Notes: generated by a model not told the origin, from the sequence alone. DNA of 64,000 nt from Alphaproteobacteria bacterium (GCA_900768845.1 CAAGEK010000020.1:14011-78010), one strand, 5' to 3'. Counted from the first letter of the stretch, positions 22,535 to 33,874 are shown. Numbers and translations are program-made.

Positions 22535-23782
22535 ATGAAAGAAATGATGCGTTCTTTGGGCGAAAACGCCCGCAAAGCCGCACGGTTTTTGGCAACGGCT
22601 CCGGCACAGGCGAAAAACAAGGCTTTGAGAGAGGCGGCCGCTTTGATGCGCGAATCGCAAAACGGTTTGTTGGCCGCCAATAAAAAAGACATGGAGGCTT
22701 TGCCGCCGGAAACGTCGAAAGCCATGCGCGACCGCCTGCTTTTAACGCCCGAACGCATTGAAGCCATGGCCAAAGGGTTGGAGGAAGTCGCCGCATTGCC
22801 CGATCCCGTCGGACGCGTGCTGGCGTCGTGGGAACGCCCGAACGGGTTGGAAATCGTGCGCGTTGCAACGCCCTTGGGCGTCATCGGCGTGATTTACGAA
22901 AGCCGCCCGAACGTTACCGCCGATGCGGGGGCTTTGTGCTTCAAATCGGGAAACGCCGTCATTTTGCGCGGCGGATCGGACAGTTTTCATTCTTCGGCGA
23001 AAATCGTTGAAATCATGCACGCCGGATTGCGGGCGGCCGGATTGCCCGAAACGTGCATCCAATCCGTCCCGACCGCCGACCGCGCCGCCGTCGGCGAAAT
23101 GTTGAAAATGGACGATTGCATCGACGTCATCGTGCCACGCGGAGGAAAATCGTTAATTCAACGCATCACCGACGAAAGCCGCATTCCGTTGTTCAAGCAT
23201 TTGAACGGCATCTGCCACACTTACATCCATTCGGCGGCGGATGCGCAAAAAGCCCGAAAAATCGTCATGAACGCCAAAATGCGCCGCACGGGAACGTGCA
23301 ATTCGACGGAAACGCTTTTGGTTGACGAAACCGTATGTCATACGATTTTGCCTGACGTTTTGAACGATTTGATAGCGGCGGGATGTGAAATCAGGGGCGA
23401 TGAAAAAGTGCGCGCTTCGGATTCACGCGTCAAGCCCGCTTCGGATGAAGACTGGGATACCGAATATCTGGATTCGATTTTGTCGGTAAAGACCGTTTCG
23501 GACATCAACGAAGCGATCGCACATATCGCGGCGCACAGTTCGCATCATACGGAATCGATCATCACCGAAGACAAAGCCGCGGCGGAAAAGTTTTTGAACG
23601 AAGTCGACAGCGCGGTTGTCATGCATAATGCGTCGACTCAATTTTGCGACGGCGGGGAATTCGGCATGGGCGCGGAAATAGGCATTGCGACGGGACGCTT
23701 GCACGCCAGAGGCCCGATCGGTTTGGAACAGTTGACAACCTTCAAGTATCAGGTGCGCGGTGACGGTCAGATACGCCCGTAA
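22535..23782 (+). CDS. proA: Gamma-glutamyl phosphate reductase
   Basis: Aldehyde dehydrogenase-like 415-aa protein immediately after proB (classic proBA pair). Confidence 0.9.
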   Translation: MKEMMRSLGENARKAARFLATAPAQAKNKALREAAALMRESQNGLLAANKKDMEALPPETSKAMRDRLLLTPERIEAMAKGLEEVAALPDPVGRVLASWERPNGLEIVRVATPLGVIGVIYESRPNVTADAGALCFKSGNAVILRGGSDSFHSSAKIVEIMHAGLRAAGLPETCIQSVPTADRAAVGEMLKMDDCIDVIVPRGGKSLIQRITDESRIPLFKHLNGICHTYIHSAADAQKARKIVMNAKMRRTGTCNSTETLLVDETVCHTILPDVLNDLIAAGCEIRGDEKVRASDSRVKPASDEDWDTEYLDSILSVKTVSDINEAIAHIAAHSSHHTESIITEDKAAAEKFLNEVDSAVVMHNASTQFCDGGEFGMGAEIGIATGRLHARGPIGLEQLTTFKYQVRGDGQIRP

Positions 23783-24350
23783 AAAAGTCGGATTGCTGGG
23801 GGGATCGTTCAACCCCGCCCACGACGGCCACCGCTACATCAGCTTGCAAGCTTTGAAATTGCTGGGGCTGGACGAAGTGTGGTGGCTGGTGTCGCCGCTG
23901 AACCCGTTCAAAGAATCCGCACCTGACATGGCTTCGTTTGAAAGGCGGTTGGAATCGGCGCGAAAAGCGGCGAACCATCCGAAAATCAAACCCGAAGATT
24001 TTGAAACGCGGATGAACACGCGCTATACGGCGGACACATTGAAAAAGCTGAAAGAAACCTATCCCGATACGGCGTTCGTGTGGCTGATGGGCGCGGACAA
24101 TATGCTTGAATTTCACCGCTGGAAGAACTGGCGAGAAATAATGCACACCGTCCCCGTTGCGGTTTTCGCCAGAAACCATTATGCTTTAAAAGCGTTGTAT
24201 TCAAAAGCGGGACGAACGTTCCGCCCGTTCAGGATTGACGGGCGTTTTTCCCGCCGGTTGGCAAAAATGCGCCCGCCCGCGTGGGTTTTTCTGGCGATTC
24301 GCGAACATCGCGCCTCGTCAACGGAAATCCGTCGCAAAGGTTTGTTTTAA
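23760..24350 (+). CDS. nadD: Nicotinate-nucleotide adenylyltransferase
   Basis: VGLLGGSFNPAHDGH nucleotidyltransferase motif. Overlaps proA by 23 nt. Confidence 0.85.
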   Translation: MTVRYARKKVGLLGGSFNPAHDGHRYISLQALKLLGLDEVWWLVSPLNPFKESAPDMASFERRLESARKAANHPKIKPEDFETRMNTRYTADTLKKLKETYPDTAFVWLMGADNMLEFHRWKNWREIMHTVPVAVFARNHYALKALYSKAGRTFRPFRIDGRFSRRLAKMRPPAWVFLAIREHRASSTEIRRKGLF

Positions 24351-29647: not shown

Positions 29648-31066
29648 ATGGTTTTTTCCAAGGACGCGAACACGGATTCCCCTTTCGCCGTAAAACCGAA
29701 AGAAAAAGGAAAGCGGCTGTTTTTCCTCGCCCTTTCGGTTTTCGTCGTTTCCCTTGCGGCGGCGGGAGCGGCGGGATGGGACGTTTATCAAAAAAATAAA
29801 AAGCCTTTTTCGGCTTTTACGATAACGTCCCCGTTTTTGCGTTCCGAAAAAGCCCTGATCAATCCGCAACCCATGTTCCGGCAGGATGACGGCCCCGCAT
29901 CTCCGACACTGGCGGATTCGTTCAAAGGACAATCCAAAACGGCCGAAGAAAAACTTGCCGGACCGAAAAACATCGATGAAGCGTTGAAATCGGCCATGTT
30001 GAATTTTCCTCCGCAACAGGAAATCGACGACAAGGCTTCCATAAAGGAAAATCCGGATCTGCCGATGGCCGACGCTCCCGAATCCGGCGATCCCGCCCCC
30101 GAAAAGGAACGCGTCATCGACATCGGGGACGAATTCGGCCTGCGCCGTCCGCCTTTGCCGCGCCCCGATCTCGTTTCAAGCGAAGGATTTACCGCGTCTT
30201 TGCCGAAATTCAATAAAATCAAGGACGCCCACCATTCCGGCGTAATCGCTTTGGACATCATAAACCCCGTGGAAGAATTGCAGGAGGAATCGCGCTACGG
30301 AAAAATCCCCGTCAAATCGGAAAACGGGGAAACGCCTTATCAAACTTATGCGCGCCCGTATGAAGAAACGCCTCCTTCGCCTTTCATCGCCGTTTTGATT
30401 TCCGGATTGGGAATGCGCAAAAACACGACGACGGCGGCTTTGTATGCTTTAAAACCGGAAGTTTCCCTCTCATTCAGCCCCTATTCCGAACAATTGGGAA
30501 ATTATGTGTCCGAAGCCCGCAAATCCGGTCATGAAACGCTTTTGGATCTGCCGATGCAACAAGGCGTGTTTCCCGAAACCGATCCGGGGCCGTTGGGATT
30601 GGTATCGGGGTTGCCCGAAAAGGAAAACAGGAAACGTTTGCACAGGACGTTGGGCAAGGATGTCGCCTACATCGGCGTCAGCGCATCGCCCGAGGAAACT
30701 TTTTCTTTCAAAACGAATCAAATGGGGGCGTTCGCCAAAGAAATCCGCGATCGGGGATTGATTTACATCGACGGGACGGACGACGCCGACCTGCCGCTGT
30801 ATTCGGGGGCTTTGCGGCCGGACGTGCATATTACCGACCATTTCTACCGCTCCGCCATCCGGACTCAATTGGAATATGCGGAAAAAACGGCCAAAAAAAA
30901 GGGATACGCCTTCGTCCGTGCGGAAACGGCTCCGATTGTTTTGCTGTGCATACAGGAATGGATGGATTCCTTCGTTCCCAAAGACAAAGACGGCGAACGC
31001 GTTCCTGAAATCACATTCGTTCCTCTTTCCTATTACGCCACGGAGGTTTTAAAAACGCGAAAATGA
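29648..31066 (+). CDS. Divergent polysaccharide deacetylase (YibQ-like) with ~230-aa N-terminal extension and TM anchor
   Basis: C-terminal half FIAVLISGLGMRKNTTTAALYALKPEVSLSFSPYSEQLGNYVSEARKSGHETLLDLPMQ matches the YibQ family. N-terminal TM plus a proline/acidic linker. Confidence 0.7.
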   Translation: MVFSKDANTDSPFAVKPKEKGKRLFFLALSVFVVSLAAAGAAGWDVYQKNKKPFSAFTITSPFLRSEKALINPQPMFRQDDGPASPTLADSFKGQSKTAEEKLAGPKNIDEALKSAMLNFPPQQEIDDKASIKENPDLPMADAPESGDPAPEKERVIDIGDEFGLRRPPLPRPDLVSSEGFTASLPKFNKIKDAHHSGVIALDIINPVEELQEESRYGKIPVKSENGETPYQTYARPYEETPPSPFIAVLISGLGMRKNTTTAALYALKPEVSLSFSPYSEQLGNYVSEARKSGHETLLDLPMQQGVFPETDPGPLGLVSGLPEKENRKRLHRTLGKDVAYIGVSASPEETFSFKTNQMGAFAKEIRDRGLIYIDGTDDADLPLYSGALRPDVHITDHFYRSAIRTQLEYAEKTAKKKGYAFVRAETAPIVLLCIQEWMDSFVPKDKDGERVPEITFVPLSYYATEVLKTRK

Positions 31067-31542
31067 CGGAAAAACTCTATCGTCCCAACGCCGGCATCAT
31101 GCTGATGAATAAAAACGGCAAGATTTTTGCGGCTCATCGTTGTGATTCGCGAAGAAAAGCATGGCAAATGCCTCAGGGCGGCATCAACAAGGGCGAAGAT
31201 CCTTTGGACGCGGCGAAACGCGAACTGTTTGAAGAAACCGGCGTCCGTTCCGTTTCCCTGATTGCGGAAAGCACACGGTGGTATGCTTATGATTTTCCCG
31301 CCGACGTAACGTTTGTCAGTGAAAAGAAAAAATCTTTCGCCGGACAGACTCAAAAATGGTTTTTGTTCCTGTTTGAAGGCGACGAACAGGAAATCAACCT
31401 GAACCGCCCTCATCCGGAATTCGACCGGTGGCGATGGGAAGACGCGGAAAATATGCCCGAGCTGATCGTCGAATTTAAAAAGGACGTGTACCGTCAGGTC
31501 GTCGAGGAATTCATGCCTTTCATCGATGCGTACCGTTCTTGA
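31063..31542 (+). CDS. rppH: RNA pyrophosphohydrolase (NUDIX)
   Basis: NUDIX box GGINKGEDPLDAAKRELFEETGV. ATGA overlap with the upstream gene. Confidence 0.8.
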   Translation: MTEKLYRPNAGIMLMNKNGKIFAAHRCDSRRKAWQMPQGGINKGEDPLDAAKRELFEETGVRSVSLIAESTRWYAYDFPADVTFVSEKKKSFAGQTQKWFLFLFEGDEQEINLNRPHPEFDRWRWEDAENMPELIVEFKKDVYRQVVEEFMPFIDAYRS

Positions 31543-31638
31543 AATCCGGTATTTTCCGTAAAAGGTTTCAAAAGCGGATTGACGCCCGCAAAAATTTATA
31601 CGAACTTATAAAAAATAAACGGTAAGGAGAAAATCATC

Positions 31639-32296
31639 ATGACAAAATCAGGAAAAGCAGTCGTCATATTTCTGACGTGGGCTTTAACGGGATGCGCCGC
31701 CGTACGAAATTATCAAACAGCGACATTCGCCTCTTTGAACATTATCCCCGATACGGTAACCGCGGACGTCAATTTTTTTTGAAAAGGGCGAAGATTTTCA
31801 AAAGAAACGCAGAAGGGAGCTGAACGGACGTTATTTTTATGACAAATTTCTGGCCGATGAACTCATCAAGCGTATGGAAAAAAGAGGATGGAAACGGGCT
31901 TCGGACAAGAATGCCGAATATGCTTTGAATATCAGCCTTACCGATGAAGAGTCGGATTCCGCCGGCATTGTTACCTATTTCAAAGGCATTGTTTACGCTT
32001 TGTACAAAACAAAAGACCGCCCTCCCGTCATCATGGGGGGAATCGCCAATGATTCTTCCGATCTTCATGATTTGGACTTTATCAACGAAGCCCTGCCCAT
32101 CATTGACAAAGAAATACAATCGAAAAACGCCTATCAAAGACACTTATGGACTTGTTCCGACAACCGGAACGGAGCTTCCCGCACCGAATGTTACATGGAA
32201 GAAATCAACCCCGATTTTCCGTCCGAGTATATTGAAATAAAAAATATGAACTATTTAAAAACGCGCTTGGTTTCCGAACCGAACCGGTTTTTTTGA
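31639..32296 (+). pseudogene. Lipoprotein gene interrupted by a frameshift at a poly-T(8) tract (47-aa lipoprotein ORF 31639-31782 continues in the +1 frame to 32296); candidate phase-variable gene
   Basis: AAGGAGA RBS and lipobox LTGCAAV. Reading through with 7 instead of 8 T's joins ...DVNFF to EKGEDFQKKRRRELNGRYFYDKFLADELIKRMEKRGWKRASDKNAEY... (listed ORF 31874..32296) without any stop. Confidence 0.65.
31773..31780 (+). repeat. Homopolymeric T(8) tract at the frameshift point of the lipoprotein gene
   Basis: TTTTTTTT inside the coding sequence; a length change of -1 (or +2) restores the long reading frame. Confidence 0.8.
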
Positions 32297-32438
32297 AAAA
32301 CGCACCGCAAACCTTTTTTGACGGGAGCGGAAGTTTTGTTTCAAACCGAAGCTGTTTTCCGCCGCGGACGCTTATGTATTCCGTTTTTGCCCGTTTTGTC
32401 TTATACTAAGGAAAACAGTGCCGGAATCGAAGTTTTAA

Positions 32439-33164
32439 ATGACAAAACAAGAACGGAAAAATATCGATTTCATATTTGAACAATGCCCCGAATTGTTGTC
32501 AACGGGCAGCAAAGAGCAGTATGCCCGATATGTAAAAACCATATTTCCATCAAGCTCTACACATTCGATATTTTTTCACGGCGGCAGGAAAGGTATCGAA
32601 AAATTCATCGCCCCCTCGGATAAGGACGCTTTTAAAAAGAACAAAGGCGTTCACAGCGGAACAAAAGATTACGGCATTTATTTCACTGCGGATAAATCTT
32701 TGGCGAAAAATTACGCGAAGGGACATCCGAAAAACAACCGCCGGATTTATGCGGTCGTGCTGAATATGCAAAATCCGCTTAAAACGGATGCGTGGTTCGC
32801 TTTGAACATCCGGCGGGCTTTAGGGGATAAAAGCGTGTTCAATCCGCAAAGCATCACACAGGACGATTACGACAGATTCATCGCCCCGCAAAATCACGAC
32901 AGCGTTTTATGGCACGGAGAAAAAGGCGAGGCCGTCGTTTTCGATCCTGAACAGATTCATATTCTGGGATCCGGAAAAGACGTAAGAATGTTCGGAAAAT
33001 GGGTTGAAATTCAAGAACGGCTTGCCGGAAAAAAACGCGAGGCGTTTTCCTTAAAACCGTTTTCTCCGAAAGAAACCGTGCAAGAAACGGCGCGTCCGGC
33101 GTGTCGGGACATCCCTTCTTCAAGCGTATTGAATCTGCTTCGCCGAAAAAGGCAAAACGGCTGA
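32439..33164 (+). CDS. Stand-alone PARP-like (H-Y-E type) ADP-ribosyltransferase catalytic domain protein
   Basis: FFHGG (His47), DYGIYFTADKSLAKNYA (Tyr81, Tyr92; compare PARP GKGIYFADMVSKSANY) and GEAVVFDP (Glu164; compare PARP NEYIVYD). His-to-Tyr and Tyr-to-Tyr spacings (34 and 11) match PARP1. No signal peptide. Confidence 0.6.
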   Translation: MTKQERKNIDFIFEQCPELLSTGSKEQYARYVKTIFPSSSTHSIFFHGGRKGIEKFIAPSDKDAFKKNKGVHSGTKDYGIYFTADKSLAKNYAKGHPKNNRRIYAVVLNMQNPLKTDAWFALNIRRALGDKSVFNPQSITQDDYDRFIAPQNHDSVLWHGEKGEAVVFDPEQIHILGSGKDVRMFGKWVEIQERLAGKKREAFSLKPFSPKETVQETARPACRDIPSSSVLNLLRRKRQNG

Positions 33165-33283
33165 TTTTCGCGCCGCCATCCTTTTCAAAATCCGTTGTAT
33201 CCTCAACGGCCAGTCGTCTAAAGCCGTTCCAATGGAACGCACCGGCATACCCCGTTTTTTCCCTTTATGCGCCTGTTTTTTTC

Positions 33284-33874
33284 TCAAATGCGGGCGCGCA
33301 ATGCCGCTTGAATCGTGCCGTCGTCCAGATAATCCAATTCCCCTCCGACGGGAATCCCGCGGGCAAGGGATGAAATCTTCACGTTTTTCCCCTGCATCCG
33401 TTCGGAAATGTAATGTCCCGTCGTCTGACCGTCGACGGTGGCGGGCAAAGCCAAAATCAATTCGACGGATTCCATGGTGCGAATCCTGTTTTCCAAGACC
33501 TGCAAGTGCAAATCGTCCGGCCCCGTCCCTTCAATCGGCGACAACAGCCCGCCCAAAACGTGATACCTGCCGCGAAACGCCCCCGAACGTTCCATCGCCC
33601 ACAAATCGGACACGTCGCGAACAATGCAAATGACGTTTTCATCACGGCGGACGTCCGAACATATCGAACACGGATCGTATGTGTCCAAATTACCGCAAAC
33701 GGAACACGTTTTTACGTTCGCCAACACGTCTTCCATTGCGGCGACCAGCGGAACCAAATGCGTTTCACGCTTTTTGATCAGATACAAAGCCGCACGGCGC
33801 GCCGAACGGGAACCGAGCCCCGGCAGTCGGGACAACAGCTTTATCAGCGTTTCAATTTCCGTGCCGCTCAACAC
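33284..33874 (-). CDS. recR: Recombination protein RecR
   Basis: C4 zinc finger CSVCGNLDTYDPCSIC, Toprim region, 196 aa. Confidence 0.9.
   Translation of the reverse strand: MLSGTEIETLIKLLSRLPGLGSRSARRAALYLIKKRETHLVPLVAAMEDVLANVKTCSVCGNLDTYDPCSICSDVRRDENVICIVRDVSDLWAMERSGAFRGRYHVLGGLLSPIEGTGPDDLHLQVLENRIRTMESVELILALPATVDGQTTGHYISERMQGKNVKISSLARGIPVGGELDYLDDGTIQAALRARI

Follow-up and report, generated by a model that had tools for sequence, protein, structure and literature searches.

ART-PolyVal is a family of ADP-ribosyltransferases (ARTs) defined in 2017 from the polyvalent proteins of phages and conjugative elements (Iyer et al. 2017, PMC5512222). Its prototype is a virion RNA polymerase fusion of Roseovarius Plymouth podovirus 1; the family was grouped with the Tox-ART-HYD2 clade, "related to" PARPs, Gig2 and the cholix and diphtheria toxins, and its active site was given as H-Y-D, with the His in strand 1, the Tyr in strand 2 and the Asp in strand 5 (PMC5512222). 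ART-PolyVal domains are predicted to modify host proteins, and to be the commonest protein-modifying enzymes in the polyvalent proteins that phages and plasmids inject (PMC5512222). Phage T4 carries an ART named Alt inside its capsid; Alt enters the cell along with the DNA and modifies proteins of the host (PMC5512222). Here we describe a gene for a stand-alone member of ART-PolyVal, found in a stretch of 64,000 nucleotides from Alphaproteobacteria bacterium (GCA_900768845.1 CAAGEK010000020.1:14011-78010, the whole of which is called the window below). An original prediction had placed in this stretch an open reading frame (ORF) for a PARP-like catalytic domain. The ORF, which opens with ATG and encodes 241 amino acids, was confirmed (Table 1); NCBI/ENA records include an identical protein, without a name.

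Pfam searches identify the gene product as a member of ART-PolyVal (PF18760, "ADP-ribosyltransferase in polyvalent proteins"), in the Tox-ART-HYD2 clade of H-Y-[E/D/Q] ADP-ribosyltransferases. The match scores 45.5 bits against a gathering threshold of 31.2 (E 1.7e-11), spans residues 44-173 against profile positions 8-130 of 140, and is accompanied by no other domain above cutoff; the same family is recognized in 49 of 52 short relatives. By comparison, the PARP family (PF00644) reaches 13.9 bits where the cutoff is 26.7 (E 0.04), in a local match of just 26 residues (78-103), and is weakly matched by four of the 52 relatives (best E 5.7e-5). Thus, the similarity claimed at the outset exceeds chance, and the domain is indeed a solo one, free of regulatory, WGR and zinc-finger modules; the label "PARP-like", taken in the family sense, had to be abandoned.

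A profile built from the 14 closest sequences retrieved 1,715 representative clusters (E <= 1e-3) among 1.84 billion proteins, ranging from solos of about 200 amino acids to a length of 5,837 and including proteins of 2,000-5,800 amino acids. The single PHROGs family matched has no assigned function and a profile length of 1,664 positions. In structure comparisons with a viral library, the best matches were phage proteins annotated as PolyVal ADP-ribosyltransferase or ART-PolyVal-like (E down to 4e-8), originating from crAss-like viruses, an N4-like virion RNA polymerase, a MuF fusion and a few solo phage proteins; the viral matches are overwhelmingly annotated in this way. Among solved structures, Foldseek ranked PARP catalytic domains best, PARP4 and the tankyrases reaching E ~5e-4 at a template modeling (TM) score of only ~0.3, and PARP and diphtheria-toxin structures came above Arr, the rifampin ADP-ribosyltransferase. 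Sequence searches of the PDB, with the single sequence or with a profile, returned no ART or PARP match, their top rows being chance matches to ribosomal protein L9 and PfEMP1. Searches of NCBIfam and PADLOC gave nothing meaningful: none of the PADLOC-DB v2 defence-system models matched the protein at E <= 10. The Arr-ms family was not among the Pfam matches listed at E <= 10.

The motifs announced by the original prediction are all present in the protein, as FFH47GG, DYGIY81FTADKSLAKNY92A and GE164AVVFD. The 52-sequence family profile was aligned by hhalign to the PARP1 catalytic domain, in a hand-entered sequence. In this alignment H47, Y81 and Y92 pair with H862, Y896 and Y907 of PARP1 (E 0.0024, probability 12%) and E164 pairs with E988 (E 0.09, probability 0.6%), all weakly; the segments concerned are FFH47GG and LWH862GS, GIY81FTADKSLAKNY92 and GIY896FADMVSKSANY907, GE164AVVFDPEQIHI and NE988YIVYDIAQVNL. 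The residues therefore pair as had been proposed, if weakly, and the assignment to the H-Y-E (diphtheria-toxin/PARP) type of ART fold stands. Since the correspondence with PARP1 is reproducible yet weak, we place the relationship to PARPs at the level of the H-Y-[EDQ] superclade and not of the family; judged by these alignments, the protein is a distant PARP look-alike, not a PARP. With PARPs (PF00644; human PARP1, PARP15 and the tankyrases) it shares the ART fold, the HG[GST] and GIYF...Y motifs, the order of the DS-strand, the Glu-strand and the final strand and, as far as the weak pairing shows, the H-Y-E triad. It differs from them in its Pfam score, in the lack of a sequence-level PDB match, in its low TM-score, in having no helical regulatory, WGR, zinc-finger or BRCT modules and in carrying a two-helix insert (residues 119-148) ahead of the DS-strand. 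The distances from H47 to Y81 (34 residues) and from Y81 to Y92 (11 residues) do equal those of PARP1, as had been stated; the 34-residue spacing is not a feature of the family, as the loop between the His and the first Tyr is 1-3 residues shorter in most homologues, and this loop is where the model described below is weakest (confidence 60-67).

Conservation was counted over 126 sequences, comprising the query and 125 near-full-length copies of the domain, some of them from giant polyvalent proteins. H47 is kept in 123 and G48 in 113, and residue 49 is G, S or T in 120. At position 81, Y (94) and F (23) together account for 117 sequences; Y92 is found in 96, N109 in 108, D154 in 93 and H174 in 117. 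Position 164 is occupied by E in 91 sequences, Q in 15, N in 7 and D in 3, making 106 with E or Q; an acidic or amide residue thus stands at what is apparently the place of the Asp in the family description. In the 14-sequence family alignment, H47, Y81, Y92 and E164 are invariant. The protein belongs to the family, has the ART fold and retains the conserved catalytic residues.

The AlphaFold model of the protein has a mean predicted local distance difference test score (pLDDT) of 77, with most of residues 1-200 at 80-97 and two low-confidence loops, at about 61-80 and 121-130, at 57-67. The core strands comprise residues 44-50 (containing H47), 80-83 (Y81), 101-108, 113-116, 155-158, 164-167 (beginning with E164) and 173-175, while Y92 sits on a helix (86-93). 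An N-terminal extension falls outside the Pfam model yet is conserved together with the ART domain: G23, Y28, Y31, F36 and P37 are invariant in the 14-sequence alignment and present in 112-123 of the 126 sequences. Because these residues are conserved as well, the conserved module measures about 200 amino acids and is longer than the 140-position Pfam model, which it exceeds by three N-terminal helices and a C-terminal helix. The tail cannot be aligned among homologues, and residues 200-241 have an isoelectric point of 10.8; the protein as a whole is basic (9.7). No hydrophobic segment is present (maximum 19-residue Kyte-Doolittle value 0.43), which makes the cytoplasmic location put forward originally a plausible one. 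Neither a signal peptide nor an N-terminal trafficking or Rhs/MuF domain was found in the protein.

The ART catalytic core is under constraint. The cluster to which the protein belongs has 11 members from several samples, namely nine full-length (241-amino acid) variants and two fragments. All nine variants are intact with unchanged catalytic residues, and positions variable among strains make up 2.6% of residues 1-190 as against 15.7% of residues 191-241, so that the core is about six times less variable. Comparison with contig L018 reveals five synonymous and five non-synonymous codon differences, four of the latter lying outside the catalytic domain, at residues 193-227. Homologues with 45-62% identity in other genomes retain all catalytic and structural residues, with 42 invariant columns. 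This pattern of variation among strains and homologues indicates purifying selection on the catalytic module, followed by a basic tail that evolves freely.

Close homologues of the protein amount to 14 clusters among 5.8 billion proteins, all but two being solos of 209-256 amino acids; no relative was found in a scan of 185,579 species genomes. The solo clade, made up of the window protein and about 13 metagenome clusters, has hosts of 37-51% GC. It is thus small, and the term "rare" used originally fits it; the term does not fit the domain family, which is large (the 1,715 clusters above) and has solos in phages too. P0012 and P0014, the two homologues that are not solos, are encoded on contigs of crAss-like phages, and the phage relatives are 53-56% identical to the window protein. 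On contig L020 the ART frame is broken by TAG. Reading TAG as Gln (seven in-frame occurrences) restores a 714-amino acid protein (L020 2620-4764) with ART-PolyVal at residues 180-311 and a HEMGH zincin-type motif further downstream, encoded between a portal gene (phrog_6547) and the crAss major capsid gene (PF23898, E 1.5e-148). L020, which comes from IMG/VR, and a second crAss-like contig of 99 kb (L017) both recode TAG as a sense codon, apparently Gln, and gene callers break the 714-amino acid protein into fragments such as P0014. The combination of an ART with a metallopeptidase is a signature architecture of polyvalent proteins (PMC5512222).

A neighbor-joining tree (no bootstrap) recovers the crAss-like clade as the sister group of the solo clade to which the window protein belongs. 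Together with the lower GC content of the gene and the bias of the family toward phages and mobile elements, this relationship suggests that bacterial chromosomes captured a phage effector module. The gene is therefore probably of phage origin, as far as phylogeny and composition can tell; the phage connection, the most informative fact on this point, was missed in the original prediction. For the phage relatives, T4 Alt can serve as a functional model, although it belongs to the R-S-E clade, another ART lineage (PMC5512222), and the window gene is not in a phage. Set beside ART-PolyVal as described, the window protein is alike in exceeding the gathering threshold, in having the His in strand 1 and the Tyr in strand 2, in the annotation of its viral structural matches and in having as sister clade a multi-domain phage protein encoded between portal and capsid genes. 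It differs in being a 241-amino acid chromosomal solo, outside any polyvalent protein or recognizable mobile element. The multi-domain setting is a typical context rather than a strict criterion, solo phage copies bearing the family name as well.

Seven independent contexts of the ART gene were compared: the window and contigs L001, L003, L021, L102, L106 and L107. All are housekeeping neighbourhoods, mostly of 37-39% GC, and no neighbouring gene is common to the seven. No antitoxin gene (macrodomain, ParS, MbcA or Xre) and no immunity gene stands beside the ART gene in any of them, the neighbours in the window being rppH, a lipoprotein gene and recR, and no small ORF is conserved across the loci in the flanking intergenic regions. 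Within 13 kb on either side of the window gene, where only housekeeping genes are found, there is no macrodomain, antitoxin-like, integrase, mobility or secretion gene. The statement that no macrodomain or antitoxin gene lies next to the ART gene thus proved right.

We consider it rather likely that the gene encodes a stand-alone, catalytically competent ART-PolyVal transferase of phage origin that was captured in the chromosome. The protein is probably an active transferase dependent on nicotinamide adenine dinucleotide (NAD+), as its motifs suggest. By analogy with diphtheria toxin and PARPs, NAD+ would bind in the ART cleft, with H47-G48 and Y81 holding the nicotinamide-ribose and adenosine-ribose moieties and Y92 stacking on the nicotinamide; E164, at the start of the catalytic strand, would polarize the N-glycosidic bond, as catalytic acid or base. 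ADP-ribose would then be passed to a macromolecular acceptor, most likely a protein if the phage relatives and the prediction made for the family (PMC5512222) are a guide; a nucleic-acid or small-molecule acceptor is possible. In the phages, this module belongs to polyvalent proteins that are packaged in the virion and presumably enter the cell together with the DNA, where they would act on host factors. Capture of the module of about 200 amino acids as a single gene, and its insertion between rppH and recR along with an unrelated ORFan lipoprotein gene, would have taken place in an uncultured gut alphaproteobacterium, purifying selection keeping the gene since. Given that no antitoxin, immunity or reversal gene accompanies it, the target is presumably one whose modification does not kill the carrier; it might be a host factor with a dispensable or regulatory role, or else some part of an invading element. 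The absence of a neighbour common to the ART loci compared is compatible with non-lethal regulatory modification, with an invading-element target or with Arr-like detoxification, and speaks against both a classical toxin of the toxin-antitoxin or polymorphic type and an unaccompanied NADase.

Several observations weigh against the captured-transferase explanation. The third catalytic position is Glu in the clade of the window protein, as opposed to Asp in the founding description, so that the ART-PolyVal signature appears only in a variant form. The hhalign matches to PARP1 are weak and local, and were built on the hand-entered sequence. Upstream of the gene, a scan for promoters detected no sigma-70 consensus. 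The phage-to-bacterium direction leans on the unbootstrapped tree and on the phage and mobile-element bias of the family. A constitutive host-modifying enzyme lacking an antidote is hard to reconcile with a function in "host takeover". Finally, the searchable literature yielded no biochemical data for any ART-PolyVal member; hence, NAD+ use and transferase rather than NADase activity are what we infer from fold and motif, and the acceptor class and biological role are likewise putative.

Other explanations were weighed against this background. The Tox-ART-HYD2 clade also includes polymorphic and toxin-antitoxin toxins, and the gene might encode such a toxin, its antidote being unrecognized or encoded elsewhere. 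We think this quite unlikely, as no neighbouring gene is shared by the seven contexts, the flanking intergenic regions contain no conserved small ORF, and the room available in the window is limited to 142 bp upstream and 119 bp downstream; moreover, the protein lacks a signal peptide and an N-terminal trafficking or Rhs/MuF domain, and it differs from DarT, ParT, MbcT, the RES toxins and the Tox-ART-HYD2 polymorphic toxins in having no toxin-delivery domain and no PADLOC match. The missing partners also tell against an NAD+-degrading enzyme (NADase or NAD+ phosphorylase) acting as an abortive-infection or defence effector. ART-fold NAD+ degraders exist and the gene resides in a small accessory islet, but a bare NADase without sensor or regulatory domain or partner gene would be constitutively toxic, PADLOC models do not recognize the protein, and the retained Y81, Y92 and E164 set would be typical of transferases; we regard this role as very improbable. 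Much the same low credence goes to an Arr-like ADP-ribosyltransferase of small molecules (antibiotics or xenobiotics). Arr is likewise a small solo ART, H-Y-D-type and antidote-free, that spreads as a single gene, and an enzyme of this kind would account for a solo, antidote-free gene moving among chromosomal sites in gut and similar metagenome-derived bacteria. However, drug detoxification is implausible for relatives that, at 53-56% identity, belong to a phage structural-module protein, and PARP and diphtheria-toxin matches outrank Arr, the Arr-ms family being absent from the listed Pfam matches.

That the gene is a functionless leftover of phage DNA drifting to loss seems highly improbable. 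Its foreign GC content, the frameshift in the co-inserted lipoprotein gene of this assembly and the failure to find a promoter consensus upstream would all fit; they are countered by the nine intact full-length variants, whose catalytic residues are identical and whose core varies some sixfold less than the tail, and by the retention of all catalytic and structural residues in homologues of 45-62% identity. A true bacterial PARP-family enzyme, homologous to the eukaryotic PARPs and possibly making poly(ADP-ribose), is scarcely credible. Among solved structures the best matches are to PARP catalytic domains, PF00644 finds a local match in the protein and weak ones in four of the 52 relatives, and the spacings and, by the weak pairing, the H-Y-E triad are those of PARP1; against this stand a PF00644 score below cutoff where PF18760 reaches 45.5 bits, the failure of any PDB PARP to match by single sequence or profile, TM-scores of ~0.3, the absence of helical regulatory, WGR and other PARP accessory domains, and close relatives that are all ART-PolyVal proteins. 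Finally, the solo clade could represent a domesticated phage weapon, a host-modifying ART of crAss-like virions captured as an antidote-free, one-gene defence or exclusion factor. We see this as unlikely; if true, the enzyme would ADP-ribosylate something belonging to the phages or mobile elements that arrive, or modify a host target beforehand, and would constitute a one-gene defence or exclusion factor outside the current defence catalogues.

Table 1. Position of the predicted ADP-ribosyltransferase gene, its parts and its neighbours in the window.
Feature	Coordinates	Strand	Remarks
Stand-alone ART-PolyVal ADP-ribosyltransferase gene	32439..33164	+	Stop codon included; ATG ORF, 241 aa; Pfam PF18760
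N-terminal three-helix extension, aa 1-43	32439..32567	+	Helices 3-15, 19-22, 25-32; pLDDT 91-96
ART catalytic core, aa 44-175	32568..32963	+	
Codons of core residues	H47 32577-32579; Y81 32679-32681; Y92 32712-32714; D154 32898-32900; E164 32928-32930	+	
C-terminal helix packed on the domain, aa 179-203	32973..33047	+	pLDDT 82-97; D181 and F185 invariant
Disordered basic C-terminal tail, aa 204-241	33048..33161	+	Ends LLRRKRQNG; pLDDT <50
Lower-GC islet (lipoprotein and ART genes), 1.74 kb	31543..33283		Inserted between convergent rppH and recR
rppH (NUDIX hydrolase), left flank	31063..31542	+	PF00293, E 2.6e-24
recR, right flank	33284..33874	-	Toprim_4, RecR_C, RecR_HhH, RecR_ZnF
ORFan lipoprotein gene, split	31639..32296	+	One extra T in a T8 run, 31773-31780

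The original prediction had situated the gene in an AT-richer insertion between rppH and recR, and this description holds. The GC fraction is 0.40-0.46 over 31.4-33.0 kb as against 0.51-0.56 in the flanks; the ART gene has 45.7% GC and the lipoprotein gene 43.5%, the window averaging 51%. On the closely related contig L022 the genes follow each other in the order ctpA, deacetylase, rppH, recR, ybaB, dnaX and fabD (identity to the window 88% for CtpA, 77% for RppH, 77% for RecR and 93% for FabD), with no homologue of the lipoprotein or ART gene. Since a mere spacer of about 50 bp separates rppH from recR there, in the same order, the segment between them in the window is an insertion. No direct or inverted repeats flank it beyond chance 12-18-mers. 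The ART gene follows rppH at a distance of 0.9 kb and is convergent with recR. The window is an ordinary piece of chromosome, with proB, proA, nadD, rlmH, gpmI, a gene for an M23 peptidase, ctpA, a gene for a polysaccharide deacetylase and rppH on the upstream side and recR, ybaB, dnaX, fabD, fabG, fabF, mltG, rpsF, rplI and dnaB on the downstream side. Terminator-like sites occur at background frequency, and a search of the flanks of the ART gene against Rfam gave no more than a sub-threshold small RNA (sRNA) match (E 0.57).

Synteny with ctpA and the deacetylase gene is kept in most of the rppH-bearing metagenome loci that reach far enough upstream. The rppH genes of contigs L023 and L022 are both 77% identical to that of the window and are followed by different genes: a RidA-like gene, split transketolase-like genes and others in L023 (5475-10171), directly recR in L022 (5478-6113). 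The junction downstream of rppH is therefore variable in related genomes. By RecR, the nearest sequenced genome is an Alphaproteobacteria metagenome-assembled genome with 69% identity and a different synteny; the closest relatives of RppH are on metagenome contigs, several of which are titled human gut metagenome.

The lipoprotein gene reads in the window as two ORFs of 47 and 140 amino acids between rppH and the ART gene. In two contigs of 98-99% identity (L018 and L019), the run of eight Ts has seven and the gene is intact at 218 amino acids, which bears out the frameshift reported earlier. The extra T could be a sequencing error, a recent pseudogene mutation or slipped-strand phase variation. 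Among 5.8 billion proteins the lipoprotein matched only its own cluster, and it has no Pfam family. We considered it as a functional partner or immunity protein of the ART and rejected this idea, the gene being an ORFan without Pfam family that is absent at all other ART loci. The two genes were inserted together, and no evidence links them in function. Also considered was a link to ADP-ribose or NAD metabolism through rppH and through nadD (23760-24350), a NAD biosynthesis gene about 8 kb away; E. coli RppH, a Nudix hydrolase, reportedly cleaves protein-linked ADP-ribose in vitro. This too was rejected: the arrangement is housekeeping synteny that exists without the ART gene in L022, and the proximity looks coincidental.

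Some further features were noted at the other solo loci. Two ART copies lie directly downstream of tRNA genes, which are typical landing sites of acquired DNA: tRNA-Arg and tRNA-Pro precede the gene in L003 (7709-7912), and tRNA-Ile(TAT) ends 4 nt before the start codon in L107 (529-603). In L021, which carries the closest non-conspecific homologue (P0002, 62% identity), a 179-amino acid ORF without assigned function (1523-2062) has a 4-nt overlap with the ART stop codon; nothing equivalent stands beside the other ART genes. The low-GC relatives share a conserved non-coding block ahead of the gene (L001 7862-7990; L102 1078-1214 and 1946-2100; L106 1640-1781; L003 7870-8000), in which a terminator-like hairpin is followed by paired GAGTTCGAAAG and TTTCGAAC motifs and a -10-like box, TGTGATACAAT. 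L102 has this block ahead of the following gene as well; the window lacks it. It may serve these loci as a common operator or promoter. Another block, some 40-60 nt long, TTCA(T/C)C..TC(A/T)A(T/C)CTCTC..CCCTA..., is repeated on the upstream and downstream sides of the ART gene (L106 1320-1400 and 2418-2500; L102 1857-1975; L001 7560-7650). In L106 it brackets the gene as a direct repeat and perhaps delimits a small mobile cassette. L102 also contains a sub-threshold match (652-742; 35.8 bits, gathering score 53) to sRNA-Xcc1, an integron-associated sRNA.

As a computationally defined and abundant family, ART-PolyVal was known before; what is new is this member, which is of an expected kind and overturns nothing. 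Most ART-PolyVal copies are hard to express, as they lie within proteins of 1,000-5,800 amino acids or in stop-recoding phages. The compact solo of 241 amino acids, kept by purifying selection, is a convenient entry point to the activity of the family, and could be used to establish whether transfer is mono or poly, whether the acceptor is protein or nucleic acid, and what the presumed target of the phage version is. It would also illustrate cleanly how one effector domain of a phage can pass into the chromosomes of bacteria.

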